Below are positions 3,392-25,030 of a stretch of 64,000 nucleotides of DNA, one piece after another. A program made the position numbers and the translations under genes. The notes under the pieces were generated by a model, which made no database searches, was not told the origin of the DNA, and was given only the letters and a program-made list of their open reading frames with translations. Position 1 is the first letter of the stretch; the number at the start of each line of letters is the position of its first letter. This DNA is from Minisyncoccota bacterium (GTDB lineage: Bacteria > Patescibacteriota > Minisyncoccia > Phycocordibacterales > UBA9973): contig JBAYHR010000001.1 in NCBI GenBank assembly GCA_041666045.1, forward strand, positions 187,391 through 251,390, read 5' to 3'.

Positions 3392-4672
3392 ATGCCAAAA
3401 GTAAACCCAGCAATAGAGAGTTTCGCTAGAATAAAAGTCATCGGAGTAGGAGGATCTGGAAAGAATGCTCTTAACCATATGATAAATTCAAAAGTTAAGA
3501 GTGTAGAATTTATTTGTATGAATACAGACACACAAGATTTGCACAATTCTCTTGCTGAGAAAAAAATTCATATTGGAAAAAATCTTACAAAAGGACTTGG
3601 AGCTGGGATGGATCCAGAAATTGGAAGAAAAGCAGCTGAAGAAACTAAATCTGAAATTCAAGATGTTATAAAAGGAGCTGACATGGTTTTTATTGCATGT
3701 GGAATGGGAGGAGGCACAGGCACAGGCGCAGCACCTATAGTTGCTCGTGCCGCCAAAGAACAAGGAATACTTACAGTGGCAGTTGTCACAAAACCATTTT
3801 TCTTTGAAGGTAATTTTAGATCAAAGATAGCTGATAAGGGAATCGAAGATTTAGCCAAAGAAGTTGATGCTATAATCATTATTCCAAATGATAAATTACT
3901 GCAAATTTCTGATAAAAATACAAACTTTAGAAATGCTTTTGCAACTTGTGATGACGTCCTACGCCAAGCAGTAGAAGGTATTTCAGATCTTATTACAACC
4001 CCAGGAATAATCAACGTAGACTTTGCAGATATCAGGGCAATCATGTCTGATGCAGGATCTGCTCTTATGGGTATAGGTTCAGCTTCAGGAGAAAAAAGAG
4101 CAGAAAAAGCAGCTCTTATGGCAATCAATTCCCCTCTTCTTGAAGTTTCAATCAATGGAGCAAAAGGGGTATTGTTCGCAATTTCTGGTGGTGATGACAT
4201 CACAATTCATGAAATTCAAGAAGCAGCTAAAATAATTACAGAATCAATTGATAAAGATGCCAAAGTTATTTTTGGTACTATCCATGATGATAAATTAAAG
4301 AAAGGAGAATTAAAAGTTACTGTTATTGCTACAAACTTCCCTACTGACATGCCAAGAAAAACTTTATTTACAAATACATCATACGGAGTAAATAGTGCAA
4401 GCCAAAGTACATTAAAAGAAGAAAATTCTCAAAATAATAAAAAAGAAATACATAATAACTTACAAGGTTTAAATATAAATAATACTGATTATAATAAAAA
4501 AATACCTGCCCGCAATGCTTTCAACACACCTGCCAACAACGCTTCGCGTAGCGATACAGGCTGGACTGATGCAGGCGGGGAAAAGAAACCAGAAGTTATA
4601 GAAGAAATAATTATAGACGACGCTGATGACTGGAGCGCTGTTCCAGCATTCTTAAGACGCAACAAAAAATAA
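3392..4672 (+). CDS. ftsZ: Cell division GTPase FtsZ
   Basis: Tubulin signature GGGTGTGAAPIVA, plus NTD and N-F-x-ATCDDVLRQA motifs. Long low-complexity C-terminal linker. Confidence 0.95.
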   Translation: MPKVNPAIESFARIKVIGVGGSGKNALNHMINSKVKSVEFICMNTDTQDLHNSLAEKKIHIGKNLTKGLGAGMDPEIGRKAAEETKSEIQDVIKGADMVFIACGMGGGTGTGAAPIVARAAKEQGILTVAVVTKPFFFEGNFRSKIADKGIEDLAKEVDAIIIIPNDKLLQISDKNTNFRNAFATCDDVLRQAVEGISDLITTPGIINVDFADIRAIMSDAGSALMGIGSASGEKRAEKAALMAINSPLLEVSINGAKGVLFAISGGDDITIHEIQEAAKIITESIDKDAKVIFGTIHDDKLKKGELKVTVIATNFPTDMPRKTLFTNTSYGVNSASQSTLKEENSQNNKKEIHNNLQGLNINNTDYNKKIPARNAFNTPANNASRSDTGWTDAGGEKKPEVIEEIIIDDADDWSAVPAFLRRNKK

Positions 4673-4688
4673 TTAACAACTAGAACAT

Positions 4689-5624
4689 ATGAACCTAATT
4701 CCTTATGATTTAACAATTATTGGTGGAGGACCTGCAGGCGCAGCTGCGGCTATTTACGCTTCTCGCAAACGACTAAATACACTATTTATAACTTTTGAAT
4801 TTGGCGGGCAATCTATCGTTTCAGAAAAAATTTATAATTGGATTGGAACAACTGAAATAGCTGGATCTAAATTAGCAGAAGATTTAAAAAATCACGTGAA
4901 AGCAAATGCTGGTGACTTTTTAGAAATTAAAGAAGGTTTGCAAGTAAGCTCTATTATAAAATCTAAAGAAAATTTTTCTGTAAAAACAGAATCAGGAGAA
5001 AATTTTGAAACAAAAACAATTTTGATTGCAACAGGAAGCAAACGAAGAAAATTGGATGTAAAAAATGCAGACAAACTTGAACACAAAGGTCTAACTTATT
5101 GTGCTACTTGTGATGGACCAATGTTCTCTGGAGCAGATGTTGCTGTTATTGGTGGAGGCAATGCTGCATTTGAATCTGCTGCACAATTGCTCGCCTACTG
5201 CAATTCTGTAACACTTTTAAACAGAAGCGATTCATTTAAAGCTGATCAAATAACAATAGATAAACTTTCTAAAAATCCAAAACTAAAAATTATTAAGAAT
5301 ATAGAATTTGTGGAAATATTGGGTGAAAAATTCGTAGAAGGAATAACTTACAAGGATTTAAAAACTGAAGAATTAAAGGAATTAAAAGTTACTGGAATTT
5401 TTGTTGAAATAGGACAAATTCCAAATACTAATTTTGTGAAAGATATTGTTCCACTTGATAAAATAGGTAAAATAAAAATTGATCCATGGACAGGAAAAAC
5501 TGAAACTCCTAGTATCTGGGCTGCTGGAGATTGCACTAATATTTTATATCATCAAAACAACATCGCCACTGGCGATGCTGTTAAAGCTCTAGAAGATATT
5601 TATGTAACTTTGCATACTAAGTAA
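4689..5624 (+). CDS. trxB: Thioredoxin-disulfide reductase
   Basis: GGGPAGAAAAIYA FAD motif, CATCDG redox-active CxxC, second GGGNAA NADPH motif. Confidence 0.9.
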   Translation: MNLIPYDLTIIGGGPAGAAAAIYASRKRLNTLFITFEFGGQSIVSEKIYNWIGTTEIAGSKLAEDLKNHVKANAGDFLEIKEGLQVSSIIKSKENFSVKTESGENFETKTILIATGSKRRKLDVKNADKLEHKGLTYCATCDGPMFSGADVAVIGGGNAAFESAAQLLAYCNSVTLLNRSDSFKADQITIDKLSKNPKLKIIKNIEFVEILGEKFVEGITYKDLKTEELKELKVTGIFVEIGQIPNTNFVKDIVPLDKIGKIKIDPWTGKTETPSIWAAGDCTNILYHQNNIATGDAVKALEDIYVTLHTK

Positions 5625-5625
5625 A

Positions 5626-5868
5626 TTAATTGTTATAAGGATTTTTCTCATCTTTTTCATGTGTTGATTTATATTGGTCTGGGGTAAGATTAAAATTACC
5701 AACTTCCCATTTGCCATTTACATTTTTCACTAAATTTACATCAACACCACATTCTAACGCAATCCTAGCACGCTCTTTTTCAAAAGTTGCATCATCTGCT
5801 CCTTTTAAATTATTCACATTAAATCGCTCACTTCCAGTACTATTATTTTTATTTAATTCTATATTCAT
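5626..5868 (-). CDS. Hypothetical small protein
   Basis: 80-aa ORF, no motif recognised. Confidence 0.3.
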   Translation of the reverse strand: MNIELNKNNSTGSERFNVNNLKGADDATFEKERARIALECGVDVNLVKNVNGKWEVGNFNLTPDQYKSTHEKDEKNPYNN

Positions 5869-5907
5869 AATGTATATATTATAAACTAATTATTATTTTT
5901 GTAAATG

Positions 5908-5994
5908 CGGAGATGGGAGGATTTGAACCTCCGATTGAGTTTCCCCAATGCTGGTTTTCGAAACCAGTGCCTTCAACCACTCAGCCACATCTCC
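5908..5994 (-). tRNA. tRNA-Ser (anticodon CGA)
   Basis: Reverse complement folds as: acceptor ggagatg/catctcc, anticodon stem ctggt/accag with loop ttCGAaa, long variable arm, T-arm ggagg-ttcaaat-cctcc. 87 nt, CCA not encoded. Confidence 0.8.
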
Positions 5995-6080
5995 TTTTAT
6001 TAATTTAAATCTAACATTTTTTGCCATTTTTCCAAAAATAATATAGTATATTAATTGTTATCTTCATTTTTAATAAATAT

Positions 6081-6152
6081 GGCCCTATCGTCTAACGGTT
6101 AGGACATCGGCTTTTCAAGCCGGTAATCCGGGTTCGATTCCCGGTAGGGTCA
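6081..6152 (+). tRNA. tRNA-Glu (anticodon TTC)
   Basis: Acceptor ggcccta/tagggtc, anticodon stem tcggc/gccgg with loop ttTTCaa, T-arm ccggg-ttcgatt-cccgg. 72 nt. Confidence 0.8.
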
Positions 6153-7816
6153 CCCACAGGAACAAAACGGCTTTCTAAAGCCTGAAATCCGTTTTTACAC
6201 TTATATTGCAACGTTTTTTCAGAAAATAAAAGTTCCAGAAATATTTTTCTGACAATTTCTTCTTTTTCATACGAAAGAGCGTTTTCGTAGTATGGATAAA
6301 GGGTTTTTAAGAGTTCCGAAAGTTTTCTTACTTCTTTGATTACTGCTTCCATTGCAAGGTCTGATGTGTCTTCTTCTGTCTTGATTTCATTCAATTCATA
6401 TTTTAATCTTTCTTCTTCTTTTAAATATGTTTCGGGAGTATATACTCCTGTTTTAAGCAATGTCAGTTTGTTGTTTCCCAAGTATGAAAGATTTTCTCTG
6501 ATATTCTTTTTCTTTCGTTCACCGATTTCAATTTTATTGAAACGCTTTTCTTCAAGCAGGGCAATATCAGTGTGTGCACGAGCATCAATTTCAATTAACT
6601 CATCTTCGGTAAATGATAATGATTTAATTAAGAGACCTATCTTTTTTTCAAGGAATTTAATATTGAAATTTCTGAATGAATTAGAACAGTTTTCTTTGCA
6701 ACGCACTCCATAATATAGTATTCCTTTCCTTTTGGAAGGACTAAATCCCCGATGACATTGTGCGCAACAAATAAATCCTCGATAGGGATAGTTAATTTTT
6801 ACATCATAATGAATACTTACTTTCTTTTTGTTGAGCATTATTTGCACTTTGTTGAATAATTCATCTGAAACAAGAGCCTTATGACTTTTACTCTTTATAA
6901 TACACATACCGTCACAATCGAGTAATTTGCCCGTATAAAAGGGATTCGTCAGTATCTTGTGTATGTTGTTATATGTCGCCATTCTTGCCACTTTTTCAAT
7001 CTGCATTACTTCGTCTGTTTCTTCGGCTAACATTTCATCTTCTGTACGTCTTCTTCGCATTGGTGTCATTGTAAACCCATGATCATTGGCATAGCGGGCA
7101 AGACCAGCCAGTGTCCAATCGCCAGTCGCATAAAGTTCAAAAAAATGTTTAATGAGCGGAGCACGGTCAGGGTCAAATGGTTTGTGTTCCATTGTGCCTG
7201 GATTAAGATAACCGACAGGAGCACGGTAGGTGCAAATTCCTTTTTCTCTGTTGTTTTTAATATTAAGCGACACTTTCTCACTCGTTACTCTTGAATGATG
7301 TTCTGCAAACATTCCATCAATATCCATATGCAATGCTCCTGAACTTGTTTTGTCATATTTTGCCAAGACAAAACGTATATCTATTCCTTTACGCATTAAC
7401 TTGCGTACAATAGTGTCATCTCCTTTATTTCTACTCAAACGATCCCAACAAAGAACGATTACTCCTTTAAATAATCCTTTGTTTAATAAGCTAAGCAAGC
7501 GGTAAAATTTGGGTCTGTCTATATTGTATTTAACGGAACCATCTTCATTGAAATCAAGATTAAAATCCTCTTTGAATCCAGAATGTTTTTCAGAGATTAT
7601 TCCATCTGCGCAGAAACCCTTTAAGCAAATAGGAGCAATCGAAAGAAGCTCCCTATATGCAAAACGGGCATTTTCTGATTTTTGATATTTAATTGAGTTT
7701 TTTTGATTATCCGGCTCATCCGTACTTTTGCGATTGTAGATTAAATAATATTCACGGTATTTGCCTTTTTGAACTTCTTTGATAATTGTTATTTCATTTT
7801 TATCTAAATTATTCAT
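6092..7816 (-). CDS. Large serine recombinase (resolvase/invertase N-domain + recombinase domain + zinc ribbon)
   Basis: N-terminal LIYNRKSTDE (catalytic Ser) and VLCWDRLSRN resolvase motifs; Cys cluster CCAQCHRGF...C; 574 aa. The last ~20 codons run across the 3' half of tRNA-Glu. Local GC is visibly higher than the flanks. Confidence 0.8.
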   Translation of the reverse strand: MNNLDKNEITIIKEVQKGKYREYYLIYNRKSTDEPDNQKNSIKYQKSENARFAYRELLSIAPICLKGFCADGIISEKHSGFKEDFNLDFNEDGSVKYNIDRPKFYRLLSLLNKGLFKGVIVLCWDRLSRNKGDDTIVRKLMRKGIDIRFVLAKYDKTSSGALHMDIDGMFAEHHSRVTSEKVSLNIKNNREKGICTYRAPVGYLNPGTMEHKPFDPDRAPLIKHFFELYATGDWTLAGLARYANDHGFTMTPMRRRRTEDEMLAEETDEVMQIEKVARMATYNNIHKILTNPFYTGKLLDCDGMCIIKSKSHKALVSDELFNKVQIMLNKKKVSIHYDVKINYPYRGFICCAQCHRGFSPSKRKGILYYGVRCKENCSNSFRNFNIKFLEKKIGLLIKSLSFTEDELIEIDARAHTDIALLEEKRFNKIEIGERKKKNIRENLSYLGNNKLTLLKTGVYTPETYLKEEERLKYELNEIKTEEDTSDLAMEAVIKEVRKLSELLKTLYPYYENALSYEKEEIVRKIFLELLFSEKTLQYKCKNGFQALESRFVPVGDPTGNRTRITGLKSRCPNR

Positions 7817-7976
7817 TGATTTTTTTCTCAGGCTTATATATCTGCCCGTCTTTAATCGTATAACCTTCTAAAATTAATCTTTGGTGAATGCGTTTTAGTG
7901 TATCTCCTAAATCTTTAAGCGAATCAATAGTTTCTTGGGTAAAGGCATATCGGTTGCCTTCTGACAGTTCATCCAT
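7809..7976 (-). CDS. Small ORF (55 aa) overlapping the recombinase start by 8 nt; candidate recombination directionality factor/regulator
   Basis: MDELSEGNRYAFTQETIDSLKDLGDTLKRIHQRLILEGYTIKDGQIYKPEKKINE. Its stop TAA lies inside the recombinase ATGAATAA start, suggesting translational coupling. Below the ORF-track length cutoff, so read manually. Confidence 0.3.
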   Translation of the reverse strand: MDELSEGNRYAFTQETIDSLKDLGDTLKRIHQRLILEGYTIKDGQIYKPEKKINE

Positions 7977-8219
7977 TATGTATTAGGAAAATTAGGGTTG
8001 GTAATGTACAGAAGTTTCAATAACGTGCGGGTTCGACAATCTCAAAGTTCTCTTGAAAATATCTTAACTCCGGATAAAAAGGAATGCAAGTGCGAATTAC
8101 AATTATCGGTGTTAGTTGTAAAATTTATTTCCAACATCAAATTTTTAGGCCTGTTGAGGGGCCAAAATTTGAGTCAGAATAAATTTTACAGGACTGGTGT
8201 TACATGATATACTGTAAAA

Positions 8220-8918
8220 ATGAAAATATTTAATAAAAAAATAATTATTTTAAGTTTTATCGTTGTTGCATTCTCCTTGTTAGGGTATTTGACAGTTTAT
8301 AATAAATTTTCTTCACCAAAGGAAAAGTTTGATACAAAATCTATTAATCAAAATCTGATAACTAAAGTGCCATCAGAGAGAGGCAGTACGATTACAAACG
8401 ATCCTCTTGACCCAAATGTTCTTACTTACACTTCATACAAGCTCGGAATACAATTCAGTTATTTAAAGGATGGTGGATTTAATAGTTCTTTTTTATTAAA
8501 ACCAAATGAAACTAATGATAAAATCGTTCTCGGACATGATAGTGTAATGATATTTAAAAAACTTCCCAGAGAAACAATAGAACAAACATTAAGGAGACTT
8601 TTGCCGGAACAACTTAAAAATGAAAATTGCTCTGTAATTACTGTATCTTCTTACACATCAAAATATGATTCCTATGCTATTTGGGACAAACGAGCCCCAT
8701 TACATCAAAGAGGTATTGATTCAAGGGATTATGTAGATAGTGACGGGATTTACCTTTCTAACGTTTGTAATCCTGCTATGGAACTGGATTTTATGATAGA
8801 GCCAAATTTTCCTGATACGATTTATTACATAAACCGATCTTCTCAAGATATTTCATATTGGGCGGATTCTGCACATACAAATCAATGGTGGCAAACAATA
8901 CATTTAATTGCTGATTAG
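8220..8918 (+). CDS. Hypothetical secreted/membrane-anchored protein
   Basis: N-terminal hydrophobic signal/anchor (IIILSFIVVAFSLLGYL); no domain recognised. Confidence 0.4.
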   Translation: MKIFNKKIIILSFIVVAFSLLGYLTVYNKFSSPKEKFDTKSINQNLITKVPSERGSTITNDPLDPNVLTYTSYKLGIQFSYLKDGGFNSSFLLKPNETNDKIVLGHDSVMIFKKLPRETIEQTLRRLLPEQLKNENCSVITVSSYTSKYDSYAIWDKRAPLHQRGIDSRDYVDSDGIYLSNVCNPAMELDFMIEPNFPDTIYYINRSSQDISYWADSAHTNQWWQTIHLIAD

Positions 8919-8938
8919 AAATTGTTTAATGATTGTCA

Positions 8939-11515
8939 TTATTTTTCAATTACTATTTTTTTATTAAGTATCTCATCTTCCCCTTTTAATATTAAAATGT
9001 AAACTCCTTGGTTAAAATCACTTAAATTTAATTCAATTTTATTAAAATTATGTAATTGTTCTTTATATACAATTTCTCCTAACATATTGTAGATATTTAT
9101 CTGAACATCTTTTTTCATATTCGAATTTAGGGCAATAGTAAATACTCCTGAACTTGGATTTGGATATATATTCAAAATTTTATCTTCCATTGCTAATTCT
9201 GGCACGCCAATACCCCCAAGCCCGGAAACTTCGACATGGATAAATTTGTCAGGGGTACGATTACCTTGTATATTTGGCTGTGACATATCTAAAGTTCTAT
9301 GATTAAACTTACATTTGTAATCTGTTCCCCAATTATATTCAGATACACAAATTACAGAACCTGTAACAGAGTTTACATATGCTACATGTCCATTTTCTCC
9401 AGCACCATTAATTGATGGATCAGAATGACCTTCCCACCAAGCAATAGAACCAATAGAAGGAATATTATTTACAGTAACACCATTTGCAGAAAAAATATTA
9501 TTCCAACGACAAGCATTAGATAATCTATAATCTACTCCAATAACATTGCAAATTGTTGAAATATCACTATGATCACCATCAAATATCCAATTATTAAAAG
9601 GATACTCGTTTGTGGGTAAAGTAATGGAAGTTTCTCCAAAAAACTCATTCACTTTCCAAGCTACATAAGAAACACATTGATATTTAATAAATCCCCATAT
9701 ATCGCCACCTACTAAACAAGGAGGAGCTCCTTCTCCAAAAGGAAATGTGTTTGTGTCGCATAAAATTGATTCTTCAACATTTACTGAAATAAAACTGTAA
9801 TTATTAGTATAATCAGTTTCGTTTAAATCATGTGGTGCATTTGCAATAATAATTATATACCATAAATTAGACGGGATATTTGATGGAATTGAAACTGTAA
9901 CAGTACGAGTAGTACTGCCTGTAATAGGTAAACTAGGTATATAATCATCTTTAATCCACGTGTCTATTCCTGAATTATATACATTATCATTTGATAGGAA
10001 AAAAGATGTAATTGAATTACCTGCTGTTCCGTTTCCTATATTATTTATAGTATAAGTTATTTGTGTTGAAGCTAATGGAATAAGATTAGAAATATTTACT
10101 GAAGGATATGTGATTGTTAAATCGGGTAGTATTGTTGTATTCTGTGTATATGTGCCTGTTAGATTATTTGTATTTCCATTAGTAACGGATATTGATTGAC
10201 TGTTAGGTGCAATCCATCCCGAAACTATATTGAAACCTACTGTATGATTTCCAGTTAAAACATTTGGTAAAATATAACCACTTGCATAATTACCTGTACC
10301 ATCAAGATTCCATGTTGCACCAGCACTTACCGCACCACTTGGATTAATTATTACCTTCACTGAACCATAAGTAACATTTTGTATGTAAGTACCTGTTAGA
10401 TTATTTGTATTACCGTTGGTAACCGTAATGGATTGGCTATTGGGCGAAGTCCATCCAGTAATAGAATAGAAATTAATCGTATGGTTTCCAGTAAGAATAT
10501 TATTTAAAGTTGTTCCACTATTTTGCCAACTACCTCCGTCAATATTCCATAGAGCACCCGCACTAACTGCACTGCTTGGATTGATAGTTACATGCACTGA
10601 ACCATATTGTGTTACAGGGTTAACAGTCAAATATGCATAATTGCTTTGTGCTTGGTTATTATTATTACAATTATTAATGAGACAATAATAGTTTCCTGCA
10701 TCACTAGTATTAAGGATAGGAGTAGTATATGAATTACTTGTGCTCGATGTGTTAGTAGTGTTAGTTATAAAACCACTTGGTCCATACCAAAAATAAGAAA
10801 AAGGAGGCGTTCCATTTACAGAAACATTAAATGTGGCAGTATTTCCAACTGTTTGGGTTTGAGTCTGAGGCTGTGTAACCATTGATACAGGCGTACAAGG
10901 TGTGGATGCTACATATATAAAAGAAACATTATCTAATCTTAAAGTTGATGGCAATGATGAATTTGTTGCACCATCAAATTCAATACTTAATTGTGTCCCT
11001 GCTAATAATAAATTAGGATCTGTTAAAGTATATGTTAACGTACTACCTGAAACATTTCCGATTGCCCATGGTTGTGCTGCCAAATACCAAGTGTATGGTG
11101 AATTTACAAGGGAAATAAAAGCTGTTATACCATCATGTCCTGTGGCGTTTTCAGTTCCAGTAGCATTCCAACAAAAACTTAAAGTTGCAGATGAACAATT
11201 TACAGGAATTGTGACAATTTGTTTTATCGTTCCTGATAGATTATTATCTGGTGAACCAGTAGAGTTAGCAATATAGGCATAACCAGTAGAAGGTGATCCA
11301 CATGGAGAATTAGTGTATGTTTGTCCGTAATCAAAATTACCGCTTGTTATCCAAGCAGAGTTCATTGTAGAAAAATTACCATCAATAATAAGTTCTGTTT
11401 GTGAAAAAACGTTTCCAACATATATGGTCAGAATTAAGAAAAAAAGTAAAGTTGTTTTCATAAGTGAGTTGTTATAGGCTAGTTTTATATTTTTTAAGAT
11501 TAATTTGTCATTCAA
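8939..11515 (-). CDS. Secreted multi-domain protein: signal peptide, two tandem ~90-aa beta-domain repeats, CHAP peptidoglycan hydrolase domain, T9SS-type C-terminal sorting domain
   Basis: CHAP motifs YQCVSYVAWKV (Cys) and GHVAYVNSV...SEYNW (His). C-terminal ILNIYPNPSSGVFTIALN...VQINIYNMLGEIVY...NQGVYILIL matches the Por_Secre_tail (TIGR04183) pattern. Probable true start is MKTTLLFF at 11461. Confidence 0.75.
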   Translation of the reverse strand: MNDKLILKNIKLAYNNSLMKTTLLFFLILTIYVGNVFSQTELIIDGNFSTMNSAWITSGNFDYGQTYTNSPCGSPSTGYAYIANSTGSPDNNLSGTIKQIVTIPVNCSSATLSFCWNATGTENATGHDGITAFISLVNSPYTWYLAAQPWAIGNVSGSTLTYTLTDPNLLLAGTQLSIEFDGATNSSLPSTLRLDNVSFIYVASTPCTPVSMVTQPQTQTQTVGNTATFNVSVNGTPPFSYFWYGPSGFITNTTNTSSTSNSYTTPILNTSDAGNYYCLINNCNNNNQAQSNYAYLTVNPVTQYGSVHVTINPSSAVSAGALWNIDGGSWQNSGTTLNNILTGNHTINFYSITGWTSPNSQSITVTNGNTNNLTGTYIQNVTYGSVKVIINPSGAVSAGATWNLDGTGNYASGYILPNVLTGNHTVGFNIVSGWIAPNSQSISVTNGNTNNLTGTYTQNTTILPDLTITYPSVNISNLIPLASTQITYTINNIGNGTAGNSITSFFLSNDNVYNSGIDTWIKDDYIPSLPITGSTTRTVTVSIPSNIPSNLWYIIIIANAPHDLNETDYTNNYSFISVNVEESILCDTNTFPFGEGAPPCLVGGDIWGFIKYQCVSYVAWKVNEFFGETSITLPTNEYPFNNWIFDGDHSDISTICNVIGVDYRLSNACRWNNIFSANGVTVNNIPSIGSIAWWEGHSDPSINGAGENGHVAYVNSVTGSVICVSEYNWGTDYKCKFNHRTLDMSQPNIQGNRTPDKFIHVEVSGLGGIGVPELAMEDKILNIYPNPSSGVFTIALNSNMKKDVQINIYNMLGEIVYKEQLHNFNKIELNLSDFNQGVYILILKGEDEILNKKIVIEK

Positions 11516-11640
11516 CCATTTTTACTATTATATAAAGATAAAGAATTTTAAAAAGGTAACCACTATTTCTAAAAATAATTTAGAAAATTAATGCCTACCC
11601 TCTCACTTTCCTACCTCGTTCATGCCTCCCTTCCCGCATA

Positions 11641-11689
11641 GCAAGATTGCGTATGGACTGTCAACAATGACAGCCATACGCAATCTTGC
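11641..11689. repeat. 49-bp near-perfect palindrome (22-bp arms, 4-nt loop) in intergenic region
   Basis: gcaagattgcgtatggactgtca-acaa-tgacagccatacgcaatcttgc, one bulged base. No T-run follows, so it is not a canonical terminator. Confidence 0.6.
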
Positions 11690-11818
11690 GGTGGACTCTG
11701 TCCCCCGTGCCCCCAGCAAAAACAGTTTCAATCGTAAATTGAAACTGATAAAAATAAATTTAATTTATAAGAATGCACTACCCGAAATTAAATTAACTAA
11801 ATTAAACTTGCAACAACT

Positions 11819-13252
11819 TTAATGCGAAATAATTAACTTCTGAAACATTTGCTTTTCTTTTGTTTGCACTTCAATAATATACATGCCTTGCGGTAATTGT
11901 GAAGTGTTAACTTTTACTTTATTTGCTGAATAATTTTGTTGTTTTAATAATTTACCTTCTATTGTATAAAGCTCTACTTCTTTAATAATTTGCTCATTCT
12001 CTGTTGTTATTTCAAATGAAGTGTTGGCGGGGTTAGGATAAATACTTAAATTACTTTCATTTATTATTTCGGGAATGCTATTACTTTGACTACAGGTATC
12101 AATATAAGAGCCACCAATCCATTTGGCAATTCGCAGAATACTATCACCATCAATAGTCCAAAAGCCACCACTTACATATAAAGTATCCTTATCCCATCCA
12201 ATTGCAGTTATTCTATTATCGAAATTACCGCCTAACCCGCACCATTTTGAACCATCCCATTTTGCAATATATTTTGCTGGAACACCTCCTGCATAACTGA
12301 ATATACCACCAATGTAAAGCTCACCATTATGAATTTTCATATCGTGAATTTGCCCATTATCTGATATGGAACCCGACAAACCAAGAGTACCACCTCCAAC
12401 ATCTTTCCATTGGGTTCCGTTCCACCGCTGAATAAAATTACCGACATTGCCGTCCTGAAGGTAAAATGCACCTGAAATATAAAGTTCGTCTTTATAAACC
12501 ACCATATCCTCAAGACCTGACATTCCACCGTGCATACCACCACCAACATTAACCCATGATGAACCATTAAATTTTATAATATCTGAAATAGTATCATTAT
12601 CAAAATTGCCACCAATATATAATTCATCATTATAATTCGCTATAGCTAAAACGTAATTAATGTCAGGGGTAGTCCACAGCATAGGGAAACTATTTACATC
12701 ACTCCAATTACTTCCATTCCATTTAGCAAGACTGTTAACATGAATAGTTCCAGCAGAATCAAATGTGCCACCAACATATAATTCATTGTTGATTTCTTTA
12801 AAACAATAAATAGAACCATTCACACCAGTACCAACAGTATCCCATGTTATACCGTTCCATTTAGCTATATGACGAAATTTACCAAATAAATATATGTTAT
12901 AACCACCAACATATATTTCGTTATTGTATTTTGTAATAGCAGTTACTGTAGCCCCCATATTAAGTCCAAGTGACAAAAAATTATTTCCATCCCATTTAGC
13001 AATACCACGAATATTATCAACCCCTAACAAATAAAAATATCCTCCGATATACATCTCATTTTCAATGGTGTCTTCATATATACAATTCGCACCCTCCCTA
13101 ATTCCGCCAATACCCTGCCAATTTTGTGCATTAGTAACTACAGGACTTATTATAAGCCAGAGTATAAAAAAGCGGACTAACATATTATTTGTCCTACACC
13201 AAATTCTTTGTTGGAGAGAACTCCAACAAAGAATTAAAAAACGGGTTAACAT
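11819..13252 (-). CDS. Secreted beta-propeller-like repeat protein with T9SS-type C-terminal sorting domain
   Basis: Repeated IAKWNG-x-W...LYVGG-F blades. C-terminal LSIYPNPANTSFEI...VELYTIEGKLL...QGMYIIEV matches the Por_Secre_tail pattern. Likely true start is MLVRFFILW (signal peptide) at 13183. Confidence 0.7.
   Translation of the reverse strand: MLTRFLILCWSSLQQRIWCRTNNMLVRFFILWLIISPVVTNAQNWQGIGGIREGANCIYEDTIENEMYIGGYFYLLGVDNIRGIAKWDGNNFLSLGLNMGATVTAITKYNNEIYVGGYNIYLFGKFRHIAKWNGITWDTVGTGVNGSIYCFKEINNELYVGGTFDSAGTIHVNSLAKWNGSNWSDVNSFPMLWTTPDINYVLAIANYNDELYIGGNFDNDTISDIIKFNGSSWVNVGGGMHGGMSGLEDMVVYKDELYISGAFYLQDGNVGNFIQRWNGTQWKDVGGGTLGLSGSISDNGQIHDMKIHNGELYIGGIFSYAGGVPAKYIAKWDGSKWCGLGGNFDNRITAIGWDKDTLYVSGGFWTIDGDSILRIAKWIGGSYIDTCSQSNSIPEIINESNLSIYPNPANTSFEITTENEQIIKEVELYTIEGKLLKQQNYSANKVKVNTSQLPQGMYIIEVQTKEKQMFQKLIISH
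13202..13235. repeat. 15-bp perfect inverted repeat (aattctttgttggag / ctccaacaaagaatt) flanked by direct repeats aacatattattt
   Basis: Read directly. Lies at the junction between the 1276-aa and 477-aa T9SS-type genes. Confidence 0.55.
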
Positions 13253-13253
13253 A

Positions 13254-16200
13254 TTATTTTTGTTTTATTATTTTACCCATGTGATTTTTACCTGAAATAT
13301 TTACAACTACAAAATAAATTCCATCTGAATAATCAGTTAAATTAATAGTTTTATTAAATGAACCTGCTAAATTATTAGAATTATTTTCGAATAATTTTTG
13401 TCCCATTGAATTATACACTGAAATTGTTATATTTTCTTTTTCTTTAAATTCTGCTTTTAGAGTATAAATTCCATTGCTTGGATTTGGATAAATAATAAAC
13501 GGTATTTTTGAATTAATAGTATTTTCTTCGATACCATATAAAATTGAATTTAAATCGAAACGTGCAATAAAACCATCGCTGAAATTACTGCTTGCATTTT
13601 CCCACTGTATCCATGCACCATTACCAAGATCAACAATAGGGAAAGCAGGCGTAACATAGTGCATACTACTAGTTCCTCCAACTAAATAAAGTCTATTATT
13701 GCTTGAAACAGTGCAAGCGTTTCCAAAATCATTTTCAGAACCTCCGAAATAAGTAGCCCAAATACGTTCATTATCACTAAAAGTGAATCCTAAAATATAG
13801 GCATCGCTTATATTAGAAGAATTAGCTATAGTATCCTGATTATATGCTCCGCTTAAAGATAAAGTATCTAATCCTCTTGTAGAACCTACTACAAAAAAAT
13901 AATCATATTTCATTGCAATAATATCATTTCCTGTATTAAAATCAGTATTTCCATAATATGTTGACCATAATCTATTTCCATTGTTACTGAATCTTGAAAT
14001 AAAAGTATTACTTGTACCATTAAGGGTAGTATCGCAATACGCAGGTGAACCGGGATTGTACCAAGGAAAATTTGTACTGCTTGTATTTCCTGTTATTAAT
14101 AAATTTCCACTGCCGGAAATATTTAACGCAATACCATTTTCATCACCACTTCCACCAAAATATGTTGACCAAACAATGGCATCAGAAGAGTTAAATTTTG
14201 CTATAAAAGCATCTGAAGTACCACTAATAGCATTATCAAAATAAGCACCGCTACCCGGATTAGTAACATTCATATCGTTACTTGAAACAGTACCTGTTAT
14301 AAAAACATTATCAGAATTATCTGTTTTAACGCTTGTTATCTCGTTTCCACTACTAGTCCCGGTATTAAAGAATGTTGCCCAAAGCCGTGCACCTTGCTTA
14401 GTAAACTTTGTTATTAGTCCGTCTCCTTTTGTACTATTATAATATGCACCCGGTAATGAATCTAAAGGAGTATTATTAACACTTCCTACACCAACAATAT
14501 ACAAATTATTGTTATTATCGCCAGTTATACTGCAAAAGAGGGAAGAACTATAATAAGTGTTCCAAATTATATTATTTCCGTTCGGATTCAATTCTAATAT
14601 AAAAGACCCTCCAGATGTACTGTCAACATAAGCACCAGATGGTTGTGAATTAACAGGTTGAATTGGAAAATCAGTACTACTTGCTTCTCCAACAACATAT
14701 ATATTTCCAGTAGTATTATCGGGGAAAATAGAGTATCCTACATCAAAACTTGTTCCGCCATAATATGTTACAAATTTTCGATGACCAGTATTATCGAATT
14801 TAAGAATTGTTGCATCTACATCGCCATGAAAATAATTACTTGATAAACCATTATATGGCGGAAAATTATTACTTGAAGTAAAACCTGTAATATAAGAATA
14901 TTGATTATCATTGTCGGTTTCTATGTCATGAAATCCATCGGGTACACTACCACCATAATATGTACTCCAGTCGAGATTGCCAATTTGTTGCTGTTGCTGT
15001 GTATGTCCCAAGTCAACCTGAATTATTAAAGCCTTAGCTGTATTATATGAACCAATATTAAATTGGTAATAATTATATGTGCTGTCTGTTTGCCAGTCGG
15101 CTGTCCAGCCAGTAATGGTATCGACTGTATTGTCGGTTTCCAACTGGTAAACTGTTGGTCTTTCATAAGTAATACTGCCAATGGAGCTATTTATTGTTAA
15201 TTCATTTGTAGTACCATCTAAATTAAATGAACTTGCACCGTCGTATTCCATCATAATGTCCGTAGGGTCTCCGCCCGGTTTAACAATAAAATAGTATTTT
15301 ATTCCGTTTTGGTTACTGCTGTACATTAAGTCAATGTTTGGATATAGTTCGGTAGTAACTAACTTTTTGTTACCACGTATTTCAGTAACTCCATCGGAGC
15401 AATGTGCTAAAAAGTAATTCATATATTCAGTAGTTTCTTCTAAAGGGTATGTTTTTGCATTTGTATTACATTTTGAAAATGCAACATCTATACGGTGTAA
15501 TGTATCTGTTGTGCTTATAATAGTATCAACATGTGCAAAAACAAAACTGTTACTATTTTTTCTAATATAAAATTCGGGAGAAGAATTTTTAGCATAATAT
15601 TTAATATCTGGTACAAGGTTAGTGTCTGTATCTATTATTTGTCCACTATTTTTGTAATATGAAAAACTATTTAGTGGGTCTTCACCATTGTAATCGGTAG
15701 GTGTAATAATATCTTTTTCAACATATTTTATAGTATAATATTCAAATTCACCAGGTGCAGTTTCACTTTCGCCTGTTACAACAATATCTTGATTGTTATC
15801 AATTGTAATATTTGTAACTTTATCGTTCAAATGATTTTCACCATCATTATGGATTGTCCAAATTACATTACCACTGGCATCGTATTTCATTGTATAATAA
15901 TCTGTACTGTCAATTTGCGTAAAAAAATAACCTGAGACATAAATATTTCCTGATGTGTCTATTGCCATAGCATAAGCTTCATCATCACCATCTAATGAAT
16001 CGTTAAATGTTTCGACCCATTGTTGAGTTCCACTGCTGTTATATTTTATTGTGGTAATATTTTTACCTTCTGTTGAAGAAGTTGTATAACCAGTAACATA
16101 GACATTACCAGAAGCATCAACTTTAATTCCTTTAGCAATATCATCAAGATTACTTCCACTATTATAGGTATTTTCCCAAGCTAAAGAAAGTGTTGAAGTA

Positions 16201-17084
16201 AGTTTTATTATATCGTAATTGTAACCTTGTCCGGAAACAGGTGTTGCTCCAACAATGTAAATATTACCTGATGCATCTTCAACCATATCGTTTACCTGAT
16301 CTATCCCTGTTGAACTATTCGAGCTTATAGAACCGAATCCCCAAGCACCTGTAGATTTATTAAAACTTTTACTGCACCATTTATAAGTTGTTGTGCCTGT
16401 TTGAAGTATGCCTGATACAGTTCCATTAGTACTACCAATGCTGATTTTAACTCCGGCATCGTTCAAGTTTGAAGAATGATTGTAACGACTTGCCCATTGC
16501 TGGGTTCCACTGCTGTTATATTTGATTGCCATTAAGTCAGTATTTGGAGTTGCATTATAACTGCTTCCGGTTATATAAACATCCCCGTTTGAATCAACTA
16601 CAATTTCTGCTCCTGAATCATAACTGCCTCCAGTTCCATTATAAGTTGACAGCCATTGCTGTGTACCGCTACTGTTGTATTTAATAGTGATAATATCGGC
16701 ATCGGTTGATGATGTAGTTACTGTTCCAGTAACATAGACATTTCCACTGCCATCAACATATAAACCTGCGCCAATATCCTGTCCGTTTGCACCACCGTTA
16801 TATTGTTGAATCCATTGCAATACTCCTGATGAATTATATTTGGCAGTAAGAATATCATAATTATTATTTCCGTTCATTGTTGCTCCTACTATATACACAT
16901 TGTTGCTACCATCGGTTTTGGTAACATTTTTATAAAAGAAGTTCTGCGAACCGTCTGTACTTGACCAGTCGGCGAATACTTTTAATTCGCTTTGCGAAAA
17001 AACTGTTTGAACAAAAGCCATAAGGCTTAAAAAGAAGCAAAATGCAATGCTTACTTTGATAGATTTTGTAATTGTTGTTTTCAT
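13254..17084 (-). CDS. Giant secreted SBBP beta-propeller-repeat protein with T9SS-type C-terminal sorting domain
   Basis: Signal peptide; many SBBP-like repeats (YN-SG-QW...Y-G---D-G-GL-VD-SGNVYVTG); C-terminal IYPNPSNGIYTLKAEF...ISVYNSMGQKLF...DGIYFVVV matches the Por_Secre_tail pattern. Confidence 0.75.
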   Translation of the reverse strand: MKTTITKSIKVSIAFCFFLSLMAFVQTVFSQSELKVFADWSSTDGSQNFFYKNVTKTDGSNNVYIVGATMNGNNNYDILTAKYNSSGVLQWIQQYNGGANGQDIGAGLYVDGSGNVYVTGTVTTSSTDADIITIKYNSSGTQQWLSTYNGTGGSYDSGAEIVVDSNGDVYITGSSYNATPNTDLMAIKYNSSGTQQWASRYNHSSNLNDAGVKISIGSTNGTVSGILQTGTTTYKWCSKSFNKSTGAWGFGSISSNSSTGIDQVNDMVEDASGNIYIVGATPVSGQGYNYDIIKLTSTLSLAWENTYNSGSNLDDIAKGIKVDASGNVYVTGYTTSSTEGKNITTIKYNSSGTQQWVETFNDSLDGDDEAYAMAIDTSGNIYVSGYFFTQIDSTDYYTMKYDASGNVIWTIHNDGENHLNDKVTNITIDNNQDIVVTGESETAPGEFEYYTIKYVEKDIITPTDYNGEDPLNSFSYYKNSGQIIDTDTNLVPDIKYYAKNSSPEFYIRKNSNSFVFAHVDTIISTTDTLHRIDVAFSKCNTNAKTYPLEETTEYMNYFLAHCSDGVTEIRGNKKLVTTELYPNIDLMYSSNQNGIKYYFIVKPGGDPTDIMMEYDGASSFNLDGTTNELTINSSIGSITYERPTVYQLETDNTVDTITGWTADWQTDSTYNYYQFNIGSYNTAKALIIQVDLGHTQQQQQIGNLDWSTYYGGSVPDGFHDIETDNDNQYSYITGFTSSNNFPPYNGLSSNYFHGDVDATILKFDNTGHRKFVTYYGGTSFDVGYSIFPDNTTGNIYVVGEASSTDFPIQPVNSQPSGAYVDSTSGGSFILELNPNGNNIIWNTYYSSSLFCSITGDNNNNLYIVGVGSVNNTPLDSLPGAYYNSTKGDGLITKFTKQGARLWATFFNTGTSSGNEITSVKTDNSDNVFITGTVSSNDMNVTNPGSGAYFDNAISGTSDAFIAKFNSSDAIVWSTYFGGSGDENGIALNISGSGNLLITGNTSSTNFPWYNPGSPAYCDTTLNGTSNTFISRFSNNGNRLWSTYYGNTDFNTGNDIIAMKYDYFFVVGSTRGLDTLSLSGAYNQDTIANSSNISDAYILGFTFSDNERIWATYFGGSENDFGNACTVSSNNRLYLVGGTSSMHYVTPAFPIVDLGNGAWIQWENASSNFSDGFIARFDLNSILYGIEENTINSKIPFIIYPNPSNGIYTLKAEFKEKENITISVYNSMGQKLFENNSNNLAGSFNKTINLTDYSDGIYFVVVNISGKNHMGKIIKQK

Positions 17085-17735
17085 AATTGATAATTTTTAG
17101 TTAATATAAGTTTAAAAAAAATTCAAAATTCCTTTTATGGCTTATAGTAGCGGAAATGATTAAAAGTTACCCAACAATTAAATTTTATTTTTTAAAACCT
17201 TTAAAATTTTACAAAAAAAAGGGCATGGGACATAACTGTATTCATACTGAGGCTCTCGCGAAGCCCACGTCACAAATAAGTATGCCCACGCCTTTGGCGT
17301 GAGCGTTATACTTATTATTCTAATGACGTTATAAATTTGCGAGATTCCAGTAAGAGAATAACAATAAACGCTACCAATATTTTTTAAAGAACGCATGTTA
17401 ACATTTTCATGTTTACTAAACAAAGTTACAATACTTTTATTATAATGACAAAATATTTAAAATATTTTGTTTTAAACCTAATTTTAACTTAAAAAAGGTA
17501 AAATTATCACTACTTTATAAATTCCATTAAAAAAGAGTTTGAAATTTTAAAAGGTAACCACTTTAATTCAAAGTTTATTTTATTTATATAACGTTTAAAG
17601 GGTTAAAAGTAATTCACATTCTCTTCAAATTGTCATCTGACAAGGCTTTTAGAAGGACGATAATAAATCATAAATCAGGGTGCAGAAAAGGTGTTTAATT
17701 AGGTGCAGAAATTTTTCCTTGATTTTTTCAATTTG

Positions 17736-17767
17736 CATAAAAAGAAAAGAGAGGCAACTGCCTCTCT
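17736..17767 (-). terminator. Intrinsic terminator (minus strand) immediately downstream of the tRNA-like element
   Basis: Perfect 8-bp stem agagaggc-aact-gcctctct followed on the minus strand by tttctttttat. Confidence 0.5.
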
Positions 17768-17774
17768 TTCAAGT

Positions 17775-17830
17775 ACCCCGGACCGGAATCGAACCGGTAC
17801 AGCCTTTGGGGCCACAGGATTTTAAGTCCT
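17775..17830 (-). ncRNA. tRNA-like element: 3' portion only (anticodon-like stem-loop cttaaaa, long variable region, canonical T-arm accgg-ttcgatt-ccggt, 3' acceptor-like ccgggg)
   Basis: Minus-strand reading aggacttaaaatcct...ggccccaaaggctgtaccggttcgattccggtccgggg. The T-loop is canonical, but no matching D-arm or 5' acceptor strand could be found upstream. Either a degenerate tRNA(Leu-TAA-like), a tRNA 3' fragment from an old integration, or an unusual ncRNA. Confidence 0.3.
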
Positions 17831-18125
17831 TTTGTATTTATTAATATAAATACGATACAGCCCATTGTTTCTATGTTTAGCGCAAAACGATACACCTCAT
17901 AAGGTGCAGTAGCAAGGTGCGGAAAATCTTATTTTCCACTCATTTTTTTAATTAATATTTCTAGTGTTTCTATACTAAGTTTGATATCATTTTTATATGA
18001 ATAAAGTTTCGTAAGCCAAATTGATAGGTCACCATTTCGTGCTAGCACGAGAAGTATACTAGAAGCCTTCCATTTTAGTGGCTTTTTATATGTTTAAGAA
18101 AACTTAAAAATGCTAGAATACAACT

Positions 18126-18890
18126 ATGACAGAAGAAATAAATATTCTTTTAAAGTTTAACAAGGAACTACATGATCTTGTAGATACTAAACTACAGCTT
18201 GATATTACTGATGGTGATAACAAGGCTTTTTTCACTGCGTTCGCAATGGGTAAAGCATTCAAGACAGATGAAGCCATTGGTCTTCTCTGCAGAAGCGGAT
18301 ATGGTGAGGATGCTTTTATGCTCGCTCGCACATTATTTGAATTAATGGTCACTACTGCTTATATTCTTCAAGATACTACTGAAGATCGTTTAACTCGGTA
18401 TGCAAATCACGACTGGGTTACCAGAAAACAAATGTATGACTATGTAGTTTCAAATGAATCCTTACTTGCTGGATTAAACAAAGAAATTAAATCTGGCAAC
18501 AGACCAGACACAGTTGCAGAAGTAGAAGCTGAATATAAAAAAGTGATGGATAAATACAAATACCAAAACGGTACTTGGTCTGACAAGAGTATCAAGGACA
18601 TGTCCGAATCAATCGAAAGACTCGATGCTTACAACACGGTTTACCGATTACAGTGTACTTTGGGTCATACAAACGCCAGAAGCATTAATGAATATGTGAA
18701 TGTTACCGAAGAAGGAACTATTTTAAATATCGGACCAAACTGGGATCTTGTAAAAAATACCTTAGTGATAACGTTTGACTGTTTCTTTCATATCACTCAA
18801 GAAGCAAATAGTAAGTTTGGATGGGGGCTAGAAGATACCTTAGAAGAAATATCGAAAAAATGGGCAGAAGAAGTTGGTAATTTAAAGTAA
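18126..18890 (+). CDS. Uncharacterised all-alpha protein, first gene of the DUF4238 operon; possible HEPN-like domain
   Basis: 254 aa. C-terminal region YRLQCTLGHTNARS fits an R-x6-H HEPN-type motif. Its stop is 4 nt before the next gene. Confidence 0.45.
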   Translation: MTEEINILLKFNKELHDLVDTKLQLDITDGDNKAFFTAFAMGKAFKTDEAIGLLCRSGYGEDAFMLARTLFELMVTTAYILQDTTEDRLTRYANHDWVTRKQMYDYVVSNESLLAGLNKEIKSGNRPDTVAEVEAEYKKVMDKYKYQNGTWSDKSIKDMSESIERLDAYNTVYRLQCTLGHTNARSINEYVNVTEEGTILNIGPNWDLVKNTLVITFDCFFHITQEANSKFGWGLEDTLEEISKKWAEEVGNLK

Positions 18891-18894
18891 AACA

Positions 18895-19863
18895 ATGACA
18901 AACAGTAAAAAACATCATCACTATATACCACAATTTTACATTAATGGATTTACTAATCACAAAGGTGAAGTTTTTGTTCTTGAACATTCAACAGGTAAGA
19001 TAAATAAGCAAAGTAAATACGGAACATTCCATAAATATAAATTTTATACAGTAGACTTTTCTAAACACAAAGAACGAGATCCCGAATCGGCTCAAAAAAT
19101 TAAAAAGGCTTTAGGTATAGAAAATGTAGACACAAGTAATGTAAAAAAATACCCCGATATGATAGAAGATTTGTTAGGTGATTCAGAGACTGTTTCTGCT
19201 CCTATAATTAAGAAGTTAATTGAGGGTAAACAAATCTCTTCGACAGAAAAAATTGAACTCTCGACTTTTATAGCACTAATGTACACAAAAACTCCATCCT
19301 TCCACAATTTTGCCTCTGAAATGGAAAAGCAAATGATGAACAAAAGTATAAAGAAACTATTTTTAGAAAAAGAAAAAGTAAAAGATCTTTATAATAAAAT
19401 GCTGGCAGAAGGCTATGAGGATAAAATTGATGTACAAGAACTTTTTAAACTTGTTGAAGAAGATAGATATAAAATTGAAATACCAAAAGAATTGACTATA
19501 CAAACGATGCTAATTGGAACAAGTGTTATAGATAGGATTTTGTATAACAAAACATGGTTGATAATGGAAGCACCTTCTACAACTAGTTTTATAACAAATG
19601 ATCAGCCGGTATTTATGAATCATCCCCTTGTGAATAAATATGGCCCATTTAGTGTTGGAGTTGGCACGTCAAAAGTAGAAATCATTTTTCCACTTTCTAA
19701 AGAGCTTTTATTGATTATGAAGGATACTCCAAAAGGAAATATGATTATGCATAAAAAAATTGATCGGACGAAAGTACGTGATTTAAATAAATTAATTTTT
19801 GCTCGCTCTGGCGATTATGTTATTGCTCGTGATTTTGCCTTAATAAAGAAATTAATGAAATAA
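18895..19863 (+). CDS. DUF4238-family protein (paralog 1)
   Basis: N-terminal HHHYIPQFYINGF matches the DUF4238 signature H-Y-h-P-Q-F-Y-L-x-x-F; internal SFITNDQPVF matches the family's SDNPV motif. 322 aa. Confidence 0.65.
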   Translation: MTNSKKHHHYIPQFYINGFTNHKGEVFVLEHSTGKINKQSKYGTFHKYKFYTVDFSKHKERDPESAQKIKKALGIENVDTSNVKKYPDMIEDLLGDSETVSAPIIKKLIEGKQISSTEKIELSTFIALMYTKTPSFHNFASEMEKQMMNKSIKKLFLEKEKVKDLYNKMLAEGYEDKIDVQELFKLVEEDRYKIEIPKELTIQTMLIGTSVIDRILYNKTWLIMEAPSTTSFITNDQPVFMNHPLVNKYGPFSVGVGTSKVEIIFPLSKELLLIMKDTPKGNMIMHKKIDRTKVRDLNKLIFARSGDYVIARDFALIKKLMK

Positions 19864-19865
19864 GT

Positions 19866-20939: not shown

Positions 20940-20985
20940 TATAGATTTATTTTGGTACAAAGAAAATTTTTAAAACTCTAAAAAG

Positions 20986-22800: not shown

Positions 22801-22820
22801 GGTCTAATTATACCATAAAA

Positions 22821-24827: not shown

Positions 24828-24994
24828 ATTATATTAAAAGCAATAAATAAATACTGTTTTAATTTAAAAAAAGTATCAAATGATTTATAAAAATAACATT
24901 ATAAATTGTTTAAGAAATTAAATTTTTATAATCAAATTCTTTTAAAACAATAATTAAAATAAAATATATACAGGTATTTTTTATATATTTTTAA

Positions 24995-25030
24995 TAAAAA
25001 AACGCCGATCAAAAATCAGCGTTTTTTGTA
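24995..25030 (-). terminator. Intrinsic terminator after the 161-aa membrane protein gene (bidirectional A/T runs)
   Basis: Imperfect hairpin cgccgat-caaaa-atcagcg flanked by an A-run and a T-run. Confidence 0.45.

Follow-up and report, generated by a model that had tools for sequence, protein, structure and literature searches.

A large serine recombinase gene divided between the two ends of an element with Bacteroidota-like cargo at a tRNA-Glu gene of a Nomurabacteria-like bacterium

The DNA analysed here is a 64-kb window of contig JBAYHR010000001.1 from a Minisyncoccota genome (GCA_041666045.1), and all coordinates are window positions unless another locus is named. Its flanks code for FtsA, FtsZ, TrxB, GDH, TsaD, ValRS, LeuRS, MurJ and LepA. 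With FtsZ as query, 80 loci were found at 68-85% identity, and the names given to nearly all of them are Nomurabacteria, Paceibacterota or Patescibacteria; NCBI lists the proteins of the contig itself under 'Candidatus Paceibacterota bacterium'. This marks the host as a Nomurabacteria-like member of the Paceibacterota within the candidate phyla radiation (CPR). These 80 related CPR loci, about 1.2 Mb together, served for comparison. Against a tRNA-Glu gene of this contig lies an element of 11.9 kb (6155-18033) that contains a large serine recombinase (LSR), a small open reading frame (ORF) and four further ORFs as cargo, as well as about 1 kb of DNA without coding function. Its junctions and genes are listed below.

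6080-6156, plus strand: intact tRNA-Glu(UUC), the integration target and B arm of attL (ARAGORN; Rfam, 65.5 bits)
6092-7816, minus strand: large serine recombinase in its integrated form, 574 amino acids (aa) (Pfam Resolvase and Recombinase)
6148-6154: attL core GGTCACC (acceptor 3' strand, discriminator A, then CC), the sole identity common to both junctions
7809-7976, minus strand: 55-aa ORF, partner of the recombinase (gene call, translation)
8220-8918, plus strand: 232-aa ORF with a hydrophobic N-terminus, cargo of no assigned family (no Pfam or PADLOC match)
8939-11461 (to 11515 with the longer start), minus strand: cargo 1, with Ig, CARDB and CHAP domains and a type IX secretion system (T9SS) type-A C-terminal domain (CTD); 840 aa, or 858 from an upstream TTG (Pfam)
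11819-13183 (to 13252 with the longer start), minus strand: cargo 2, propeller-like, with a T9SS CTD; 454 aa, or 477 from an upstream ATG (Pfam)
13254-17084, minus strand: cargo 3, with SBBP repeats, DUF7948 and a T9SS CTD; 1276 aa (Pfam)
17929-18033, minus strand: displaced 3' end of the recombinase gene (P arm), coding GD-LSIWLTKLYSYKNDIKLSIETLEILIKKMSGK and a stop (tblastn, translation, blastn)
18027-18033: attR core GGTCACC (junction comparison; blastn)

The recombinase matches Resolvase (PF00239, E 2.6e-14) and Recombinase (PF07508, E 4.4e-11). As a first-pass annotation of this DNA had noted, the gene abuts and overlaps tRNA-Glu: 65 nucleotides (nt) of the ORF run antisense within the tRNA gene, the stop is a TAG in the D-loop, and the final 18 codons (PTGNRTRITGLKSRCPNR) are tRNA-Glu read antisense. 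The catalytic motif R29-K30-S31-T32-D33 is invariant in 40 homologues and reads NRKSTDE in the window protein, in keeping with the serine-nucleophile, resolvase-type N-terminal catalytic domain of an LSR. The cysteines C351, C354, C373 and C377 are likewise invariant among homologues, as in the Recombinase-domain, zinc-ribbon and coiled-coil arrangement of LSRs, and the AlphaFold 2 (AF2) model of the intact homologue P0002, described below, has long helices at residues 404-512. An insertion lies in the catalytic domain, where Pfam model positions 36-143 align to residues 86-193. The match of the recombinase profile to the A118 integrase structures (4KIS/6DNW) is weak (E 3e-4), and among the plasmids of PLSDB and the phages of INPHARED nothing exceeded 26% identity. 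The 55-aa ORF overlaps the recombinase start by 8 nt, consistent with the translational coupling proposed for it at first sight. Its homologues (40-71% identity) stand upstream of recombinases in L091 (71%), L093, L088, L095 and L029, and it is conserved upstream of both recombinase forms distinguished below. It has no Pfam or PADLOC match and may be a candidate directionality or regulatory factor. The G+C content (GC) of the recombinase module is above that of the flanks, also as first remarked, by a small difference (0.342 vs 0.30-0.31).

The site is empty in related bacteria. In L009 the order is TrxB, tRNA-Ser, tRNA-Glu, 270 bp, an NTP-transferase gene (78%), GDH (89%), TsaD and ValRS, and the arrangement in L006 is similar; the window has the corresponding tRNA-Ser next to its tRNA-Glu.

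5907-5994, minus strand: tRNA-Ser(CGA) (ARAGORN; Rfam)

The 270 bp of L009 correspond to 19.6 kb in the window. Because L009 keeps the flanking genes adjacent and its homology picks up again at 25739, the stretch 6157-25738 (19.6 kb) is an insertion, and it has two parts, the recombinase element at 6155-18033 and a separate island at 18034-25738. The integrative island that the first-pass annotation had placed at tRNA-Glu is therefore borne out by the empty sites of L009 and L006 and by the reconstructed attL and attR, while its proposed end at 17084 has to be moved: attR places the end of the element at 18033, and the whole insertion, which includes an unrelated island, reaches about 25738. 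The window tRNA-Glu is identical over 73 nt to that of the empty-site relatives L009, L006 and L017. Many other relatives hold different inserts at this tRNA-Glu, commonly of about 1-7 kb, which makes this place a hotspot. In L007, L008, L036 and L042, serine recombinases of distant relationship (22-28% identity) lie downstream of the tRNA-Glu region, at a distance of a few hundred bp in the case of L007 and L042, and the site thus draws more than one serine-recombinase family. A short Logan unitig (L003, SRR6484324_265512, equivalent to window 4628-5977) ends within tRNA-Ser, about 100 bp before tRNA-Glu; this end could be a graph branch caused by population variation at the hotspot, or merely a repeat break.

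The right boundary was found through the recombinase itself. No displaced 3' fragment of tRNA-Glu was present when a 27-mer and a 16-mer were searched with up to 3 mismatches, which ruled out a duplication of the tyrosine-integrase kind, and a remnant of the recombinase tail was searched next. The tails of at least 20 intact homologues converge on window 17932-18033, minus strand (tblastn, best E 3e-6). The nearest intact gene, P0002 (loci L084-L087), encodes a protein with 82% aa identity to the window recombinase. By blastn, L085 9837-11667 corresponds to window 7980-6150 at 80% nt identity, and L085 11663-11779 continues from this first match without a break and corresponds to window 18033-17917. 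Since the intact gene is collinear with both window segments, P0002 represents attP and the window holds attL plus attR. Five intact, attP-form genes have GG(G)TCAC at the corresponding codons, and the sequence is also present at five attL sites, including that of the window; a 7-bp core (GGTCACC) with no long direct repeats is what the att sites of LSRs look like. The reconstructed free-form recombinase has 589 aa, against about 588 in intact homologues. The reconstructed attP contains ...ccaaattgataGGTCACCcacaggaac..., and the reconstructed attB spans ...cccggtagGGTCACCatttcgtgctagc..., in which tRNA-Glu ends in ...GGGTCACCA and is followed by tttcgtgctagcacg. Judged from these junctions, the overlap of ORF and tRNA is not incidental: attP lies inside the recombinase gene.

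A conserved near-palindrome, TTCGTGCTAGCACGAGAAG(C/T)ATA, is found directly to the right of the attR core in two occupied genomes, at window 18036-18060 and at about 15793-15817 of L045. It recurs in L033 (about 16211-16235) after GCTCACC, with neither tRNA nor recombinase nearby, and it was not found behind the tRNA-Glu of empty-site relatives. It may form part of attB.

The recombinase belongs to a large family (more than 1282 homologues) whose members come in two forms, as a comparison of C-termini in the top 120, all at least 57% identical, makes clear. Form A, tailed by the tRNA, accounts for 78 of the 120 and has about 573 aa (shorter entries appear truncated); it ends in ...(C/G)DPTGNRT.I.GLK.RCPNR, which is tRNA-Glu read antisense. 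Form B, the intact form (39 of 120, about 588 aa), agrees with form A as far as (C/G)DPT, after which it reads W(L/I)SEL...I..SI.EL.... In a neighbour-joining tree built on the 556 residues common to both, forms A and B are intermixed, with the window gene nested among form B, so that form is a state and not a lineage. Form A genes in L029, L061, L096/97 and L098 all abut a Paceibacteria tRNA-Glu (UUC or CUC), and the overlap of the recombinase with its target RNA gene is repeated in L029, L061, L096 and L098. Wherever the flank was fetched, these loci adjoin TrxB-FtsZ-FtsA-YbeY, and their cargo differs. A second attR-type remnant, ...IGDPIVWLSELVNKREYIALAVENLNALMVSA and a stop, is present in L045 with the same flank motif as in the window; none was found for L029 and L061 within the fetched 21-kb loci.

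Form B genes, for which an adjacent tRNA was never found, occupy other surroundings. In L088 the gene lies in a region resembling an integrative and conjugative element (ICE) on a 504-kb contig named 'Bacteroidetes bacterium', with TrwB/TraG, ArdC, RadC and a tyrosine integrase of the conjugative-transposon (CTn) type. In L091 it stands beside OmpA, a T9SS-CTD protein and DnaJ/GrpE, in L084/85 it is part of a tyrosine-integrase island at tRNA-Leu(UAA), and in L093 and L095 it is found on high-GC contigs with a primase, a TrwB-like ATPase or defence genes. The intact genes thus belong to mobile-element surroundings outside the CPR, and at least two of these are Bacteroidota-like.

The three large cargo proteins lead to the same phylum. 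As the first-pass annotation had read from the sequence, each closes with a Por_Secre_tail domain (PF18962; E 6.6e-16, 4.4e-15 and 4.2e-12), and one of them, cargo 1, combines Ig-like domains with a CHAP domain (E 2.6e-8, a match that passes the Pfam cut-off). Inspection shows hydrophobic N-termini, MKTTITKSIKVSIAFCFFLSLMAFVQTVFSQ for example, and together with the CTD they would make these proteins T9SS type-A cargo. The best match of cargo 3 is a protein of Bacteroidetes bacterium GWA2_32_17 (59% aa identity, full length). Its named homologues with both DUF7948 and the CTD, its own record aside, are all Bacteroidetes, Bacteroidota, Bacteroidia or Flavobacterium, and many named homologues lie on contigs of 0.2-1.5 Mb; two partial SBBP-repeat matches are named KSB1 and Ignavibacteriae. 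Cargo 1 is a mosaic with partial homologues, the named ones mostly Bacteroidia, Bacteroidetes and Ferruginibacter. On the GWA2_32_17 scaffold (L089, GC 0.31) two CTD genes, each of about 450 aa, come after the cargo 3 homologue, an order shared with the window, and the DNA itself aligns in several segments.

Window 14998-17109 with L089 12084-9972: 5' part of the cargo 3 gene, 84.8% nt identity over 2117 bp
Window 13247-13406 with L089 17310-17151: CTD of the cargo 3 gene, 93.1% nt identity over 160 bp
Window 11802-12277 with L089 16768-16292: 3' part of the cargo 2 gene, 76.8% nt identity over 491 bp
Window 17203-17458 with L089 9726-9468: non-coding upstream DNA, 75.7% nt identity over 267 bp

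At the protein level, cargo 2 and the 449-aa gene of L089 share 43% aa identity. L089 also has a CTD-only ORF of 50 aa (17151-17303), 93% identical in nt to the cargo 3 CTD at window 13247-13406. The body of cargo 3 (85%) and its CTD match different L089 genes, a sign that paralogous CTD genes have recombined in the donor lineage.

A profile of the three CTDs finds one other ORF in the 80 related CPR loci and none elsewhere in the window. That sole ORF (L027 16900-18540, minus strand) lies beside the NTP-transferase gene at the same hotspot, where its contig ends. As the cargo family is broad in Bacteroidota and near absent in CPR, the direction of transfer was from Bacteroidota to CPR. In GC the element resembles the host (0.326 against 0.30-0.31), but tetranucleotide usage sets it apart: its distance to the host core is 0.0285-0.0346 against 0.0115 +/- 0.0016 (maximum 0.0152) for 5-kb chunks of the host, more than 10 standard deviations (SD) away. 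The possible cross-phylum acquisition raised at first reading is thus supported by Bacteroidota homologues of the cargo, by synteny and DNA identity with L089, and by tetranucleotides.

CPR bacteria are not known to have a T9SS; nothing relevant was found in the literature on T9SS in CPR, and no T9SS component is encoded among the ORFs scanned in the 64-kb window, which is part of a contig of about 245-266 kb. In the recipient, the CTD proteins probably cannot use this route and would be passengers, exported by Sec at most. The suggestion that the CHAP protein is a secreted weapon is unsupported, as neither a T9SS nor an outer membrane is expected in the recipient.

The sequences show the boundaries of the element, the divided gene, the empty site, the kinship of the cargo with Bacteroidota and the two-form pattern across the family. 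Together these make it highly probable that a serine-recombinase element with Bacteroidota cargo integrated at the tRNA-Glu of a CPR bacterium, with attP lying within its own recombinase gene. On this account the LSR inserted the element, which is non-autonomous and about 11.9 kb long, at the final bases of tRNA-Glu(UUC), exchanging strands within the GGTCACC core, leaving the tRNA intact and making no long direct repeat. attP lies in the recombinase coding sequence, where a flexible linker is predicted; directly behind this linker comes the conserved tail, about 33 residues in two helices. The free form codes for 589 aa; after integration the gene reads antisense into the tRNA as far as the TAG in the D-loop, giving 574 aa, and the coding sequence of the native tail stays behind at the far end of the element, at attR. 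The cargo (three T9SS-CTD surface proteins and the ORF of no assigned family) was acquired from the chromosome of a low-GC member of the Bacteroidota and brought into the CPR genome.

Several points weigh against this account. The B' flank motif TTCGTGCTAGCACGAG stands beside tRNA-Glu in no empty-site relative, and tRNA-Glu directly followed by this motif was not found in 100 loci, so that the exact native attB is reconstructed and not observed. No convincing dyad symmetry is visible by eye around the reconstructed attP or attB. Exact-protein look-ups with TrxB, the recombinase and the neighbouring DUF5677 protein returned no excised circle and no same-species empty site; all five contigs with the DUF5677 gene carry the element, and current mobility is therefore unproven. 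The assignment of the intact genes to a phylum leaves out the closest relative (L084-87). Intact-form genes are chromosomal, in ICE-like or defence-island contexts, and not on demonstrably circular molecules. A functional effect of the tail swap, finally, is wholly conjectural.

This last point leads to the most serious alternative, in which the structure is as described and the tail swap has no function: attP would happen to overlap the 3' end of the gene, and the two forms would act alike or the integrated copy would be dead. On integration the protein loses a conserved helical tail of 33 residues and receives 18 others in its place. These 18 are set by the tRNA and not by selection on the protein, the excised form was not detected, and a trivial explanation was weighed for dsiB, the comparable gene of Dehalococcoides (McMurdie et al., PMC3146451). 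The native tail itself is a real part of the protein, since W560, S562 and E563 are at least 90% conserved among intact forms and the helices are predicted with confidence: in the AlphaFold model of P0002 the crossover codons belong to a linker of low confidence (551-557), behind which stand two helices (557-587) with pLDDT of about 76-86. This modelled tail would speak against a swap devoid of consequence, and the retention of the arrangement across a diverse family and, independently, in Dehalococcoides argues for selection. A functionless swap is accordingly the less favoured possibility, though one to be taken seriously; the alternative is that the exchange alters the activity, stability or directionality of the recombinase once integrated.

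Far less probable is that the element is a prophage or an ICE of the CPR bacterium. Related intact recombinases do lie near TrwB/TraG-like ATPases, primases and ArdC in other contigs, but a Pfam scan of the element ORFs of at least 55 aa found no capsid, terminase, relaxase, type IV secretion system (T4SS) or replication gene between attL and attR, and the phage and plasmid collections held no relative above the 26% already given. With no genes for replication, transfer or virions the element is non-autonomous, and it is possibly a dead end. An ORF of the Phage_integrase family, as expected of an Islander-type island, is also absent between attL and attR.

It is still more improbable that the Por_Secre_tail proteins are native, vertically inherited surface proteins of Nomurabacteria and the recombinase an unrelated neighbour. 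Such a history would agree with the further Por_Secre_tail ORF in a related metagenome-assembled genome (MAG; L027) and with a GC near that of the host; it is contradicted by the rarity of the domain (1 of 80 related loci), the position of the genes between attL and attR, the 77-93% DNA identity to a Bacteroidetes scaffold that extends to upstream non-coding DNA, and the exclusively Bacteroidota names of homologues with the same architecture. The least credible alternative, an assembly chimera in which a Bacteroidota fragment was misjoined to a CPR contig at a conserved tRNA, was raised by the first-pass annotation and would suit Bacteroidota-like, compositionally foreign cargo and the standing of tRNA genes as classic chimera points, but it is rejected because the insert lies exactly between genes adjacent in relatives, which would require two perfectly placed misjoins, because the recombinase gene is split reciprocally at the 7-bp core with both halves present, and because attL recurs in ENA and JGI/NCBI assemblies and attR in JGI 3300037810 and in Logan assemblies of separate runs (SRR6484324, SRR18595301), with homologous recombinases at the same tRNA in at least five other Paceibacteria contigs.

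Two further features adjoin the right end of the element, one inside it and one outside.

17774-17830, minus strand: 3' half of a tRNA-Leu(UAA), with anticodon arm, long variable arm, T arm and acceptor 3' strand (inspection)
18034-25738: separate, strain-specific restriction/defence island, outside the recombinase element (Pfam, PADLOC)

The tRNA-Leu half matches the anticodon arm of the L085 tRNA-Leu(taa) at 17 of 17 positions and gives a weak Rfam match to the tRNA clan. It is plausibly the relic of a tyrosine-integrase attachment site of a former host, like the one beside P0002. In L084/85 the distance between the closest intact recombinase and a complete tRNA-Leu(taa), which has a tyrosine integrase with it, is 2.4 kb, and this suggests that the recombinase module once resided in a tRNA-Leu island. 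The defence island has a GC of 0.271 and is absent from all 80 related loci. It codes for DUF5677, two DUF4238 proteins (one matching PADLOC DUF4238-Pers), small membrane ORFs, an AlwI-type nicking/IIS endonuclease and a 668-aa fused double D12 methyltransferase. Elsewhere in the window, the LeuRS gene (49796-52732, minus strand, 978 aa) has a NUDIX domain (residues 376-498, E 3.6e-10) inserted behind the editing domain, an unusual fusion, and the CPR core region also codes, at 58055-59563 on the minus strand, for a 502-aa protein in which two lamin-tail domains are recognized (E 2e-23).

The base-pair-mapped junctions, together with cargo that is 77-93% identical in DNA over parts of its length, are direct evidence of recent DNA flow from Bacteroidota to a Nomurabacteria-like bacterium. 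CPR bacteria are uncultured episymbionts whose hosts are mostly unknown, and the Bacteroidota cargo offers a testable lead to a CPR host or partner. A more ambitious proposal, which we regard as speculative and rather unlikely to hold in full, is that the family acts as a shuttle, specific for tRNA-Glu, by which DNA has passed again and again between Bacteroidota and Paceibacteria, that it persists un-recombined in ICE-like or defence islands of Bacteroidota, that Bacteroidota are the physical hosts or partners, and that the exchange of C-terminal helices is a built-in switch of directionality or activity after landing. Here is a large family specific for tRNA-Glu in which integration rewrites the C-terminus of the recombinase and both states are seen in nature, and it provides an experimentally simple system for asking whether the state of integration controls a serine integrase. 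As a source of tools, the family supplies further compact integrases whose target is defined and highly conserved. For annotation it counsels caution, as proteins with T9SS sorting domains in CPR MAGs can be recent passengers and are then no evidence of a secretion system.

Among known systems, the phage LSRs (A118/LI, Bxb1, phiC31) share with the window recombinase the resolvase domain, the recombinase domain and the zinc ribbon with a long coiled coil, as well as a short core, the lack of long repeats and a small partner ORF as a possible directionality factor. They differ from it in sequence (at most about 26% identity to the collections searched), in the insertion in its catalytic domain and in that attP of the window element lies within the gene of its integrase. 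To our knowledge a tRNA gene is an unusual target for serine integrases, and nothing specific was found in the literature on serine integrases at tRNA genes in Patescibacteria.

The islands that tyrosine integrases form at tRNA genes (Islander-type and SSV-type) resemble the present element in their use of the tRNA 3' end, in keeping the tRNA functional and in building multi-island hotspots. In SSV1, attP lies within the integrase gene. Here, however, the enzyme is a serine recombinase, no displaced tRNA fragment of 15 nt or more is left, and the gene is not halved as in the SSV-type arrangement, only the last 33 codons being exchanged. A protein product that depends on the state of integration is also known from mycobacteriophage integration-dependent immunity, in which attP lies in the repressor gene and the C-terminus changes upon integration; no degradation tag is evident in the sequence of the protein studied here, and the affected gene is that of the serine recombinase itself.

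The closest known case by its arrangement is that of the ssrA islands of Dehalococcoides with their LSR DsiB, for which it was proposed that only the circular form has the complete gene (McMurdie et al. 2011, PMC3146451). In both systems the LSR gene lies at the attL edge and is transcribed toward the tRNA or tRNA-like gene, and its ORF overlaps attL and finds a stop only inside the target RNA gene. Both elements are integrative and non-conjugative, carry variable cargo and use a hotspot downstream of a single-copy RNA gene. The DsiB islands target the T-loop of tmRNA and are flanked by a 20-bp direct repeat, whereas the target here is the extreme 3' end of tRNA-Glu and the repeat is a 7-bp core. 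They also contain a DsiA/RecF/ParB/Mom module, whereas the 55-aa ORF is the sole partner here, no second resolvase-domain ORF, ParB or RecF having been found in the element. The hosts in the present case are CPR and Bacteroidota, and, in contrast to the Dehalococcoides islands, direct observation covers both the intact genes of the attP form and the tail displaced to attR.

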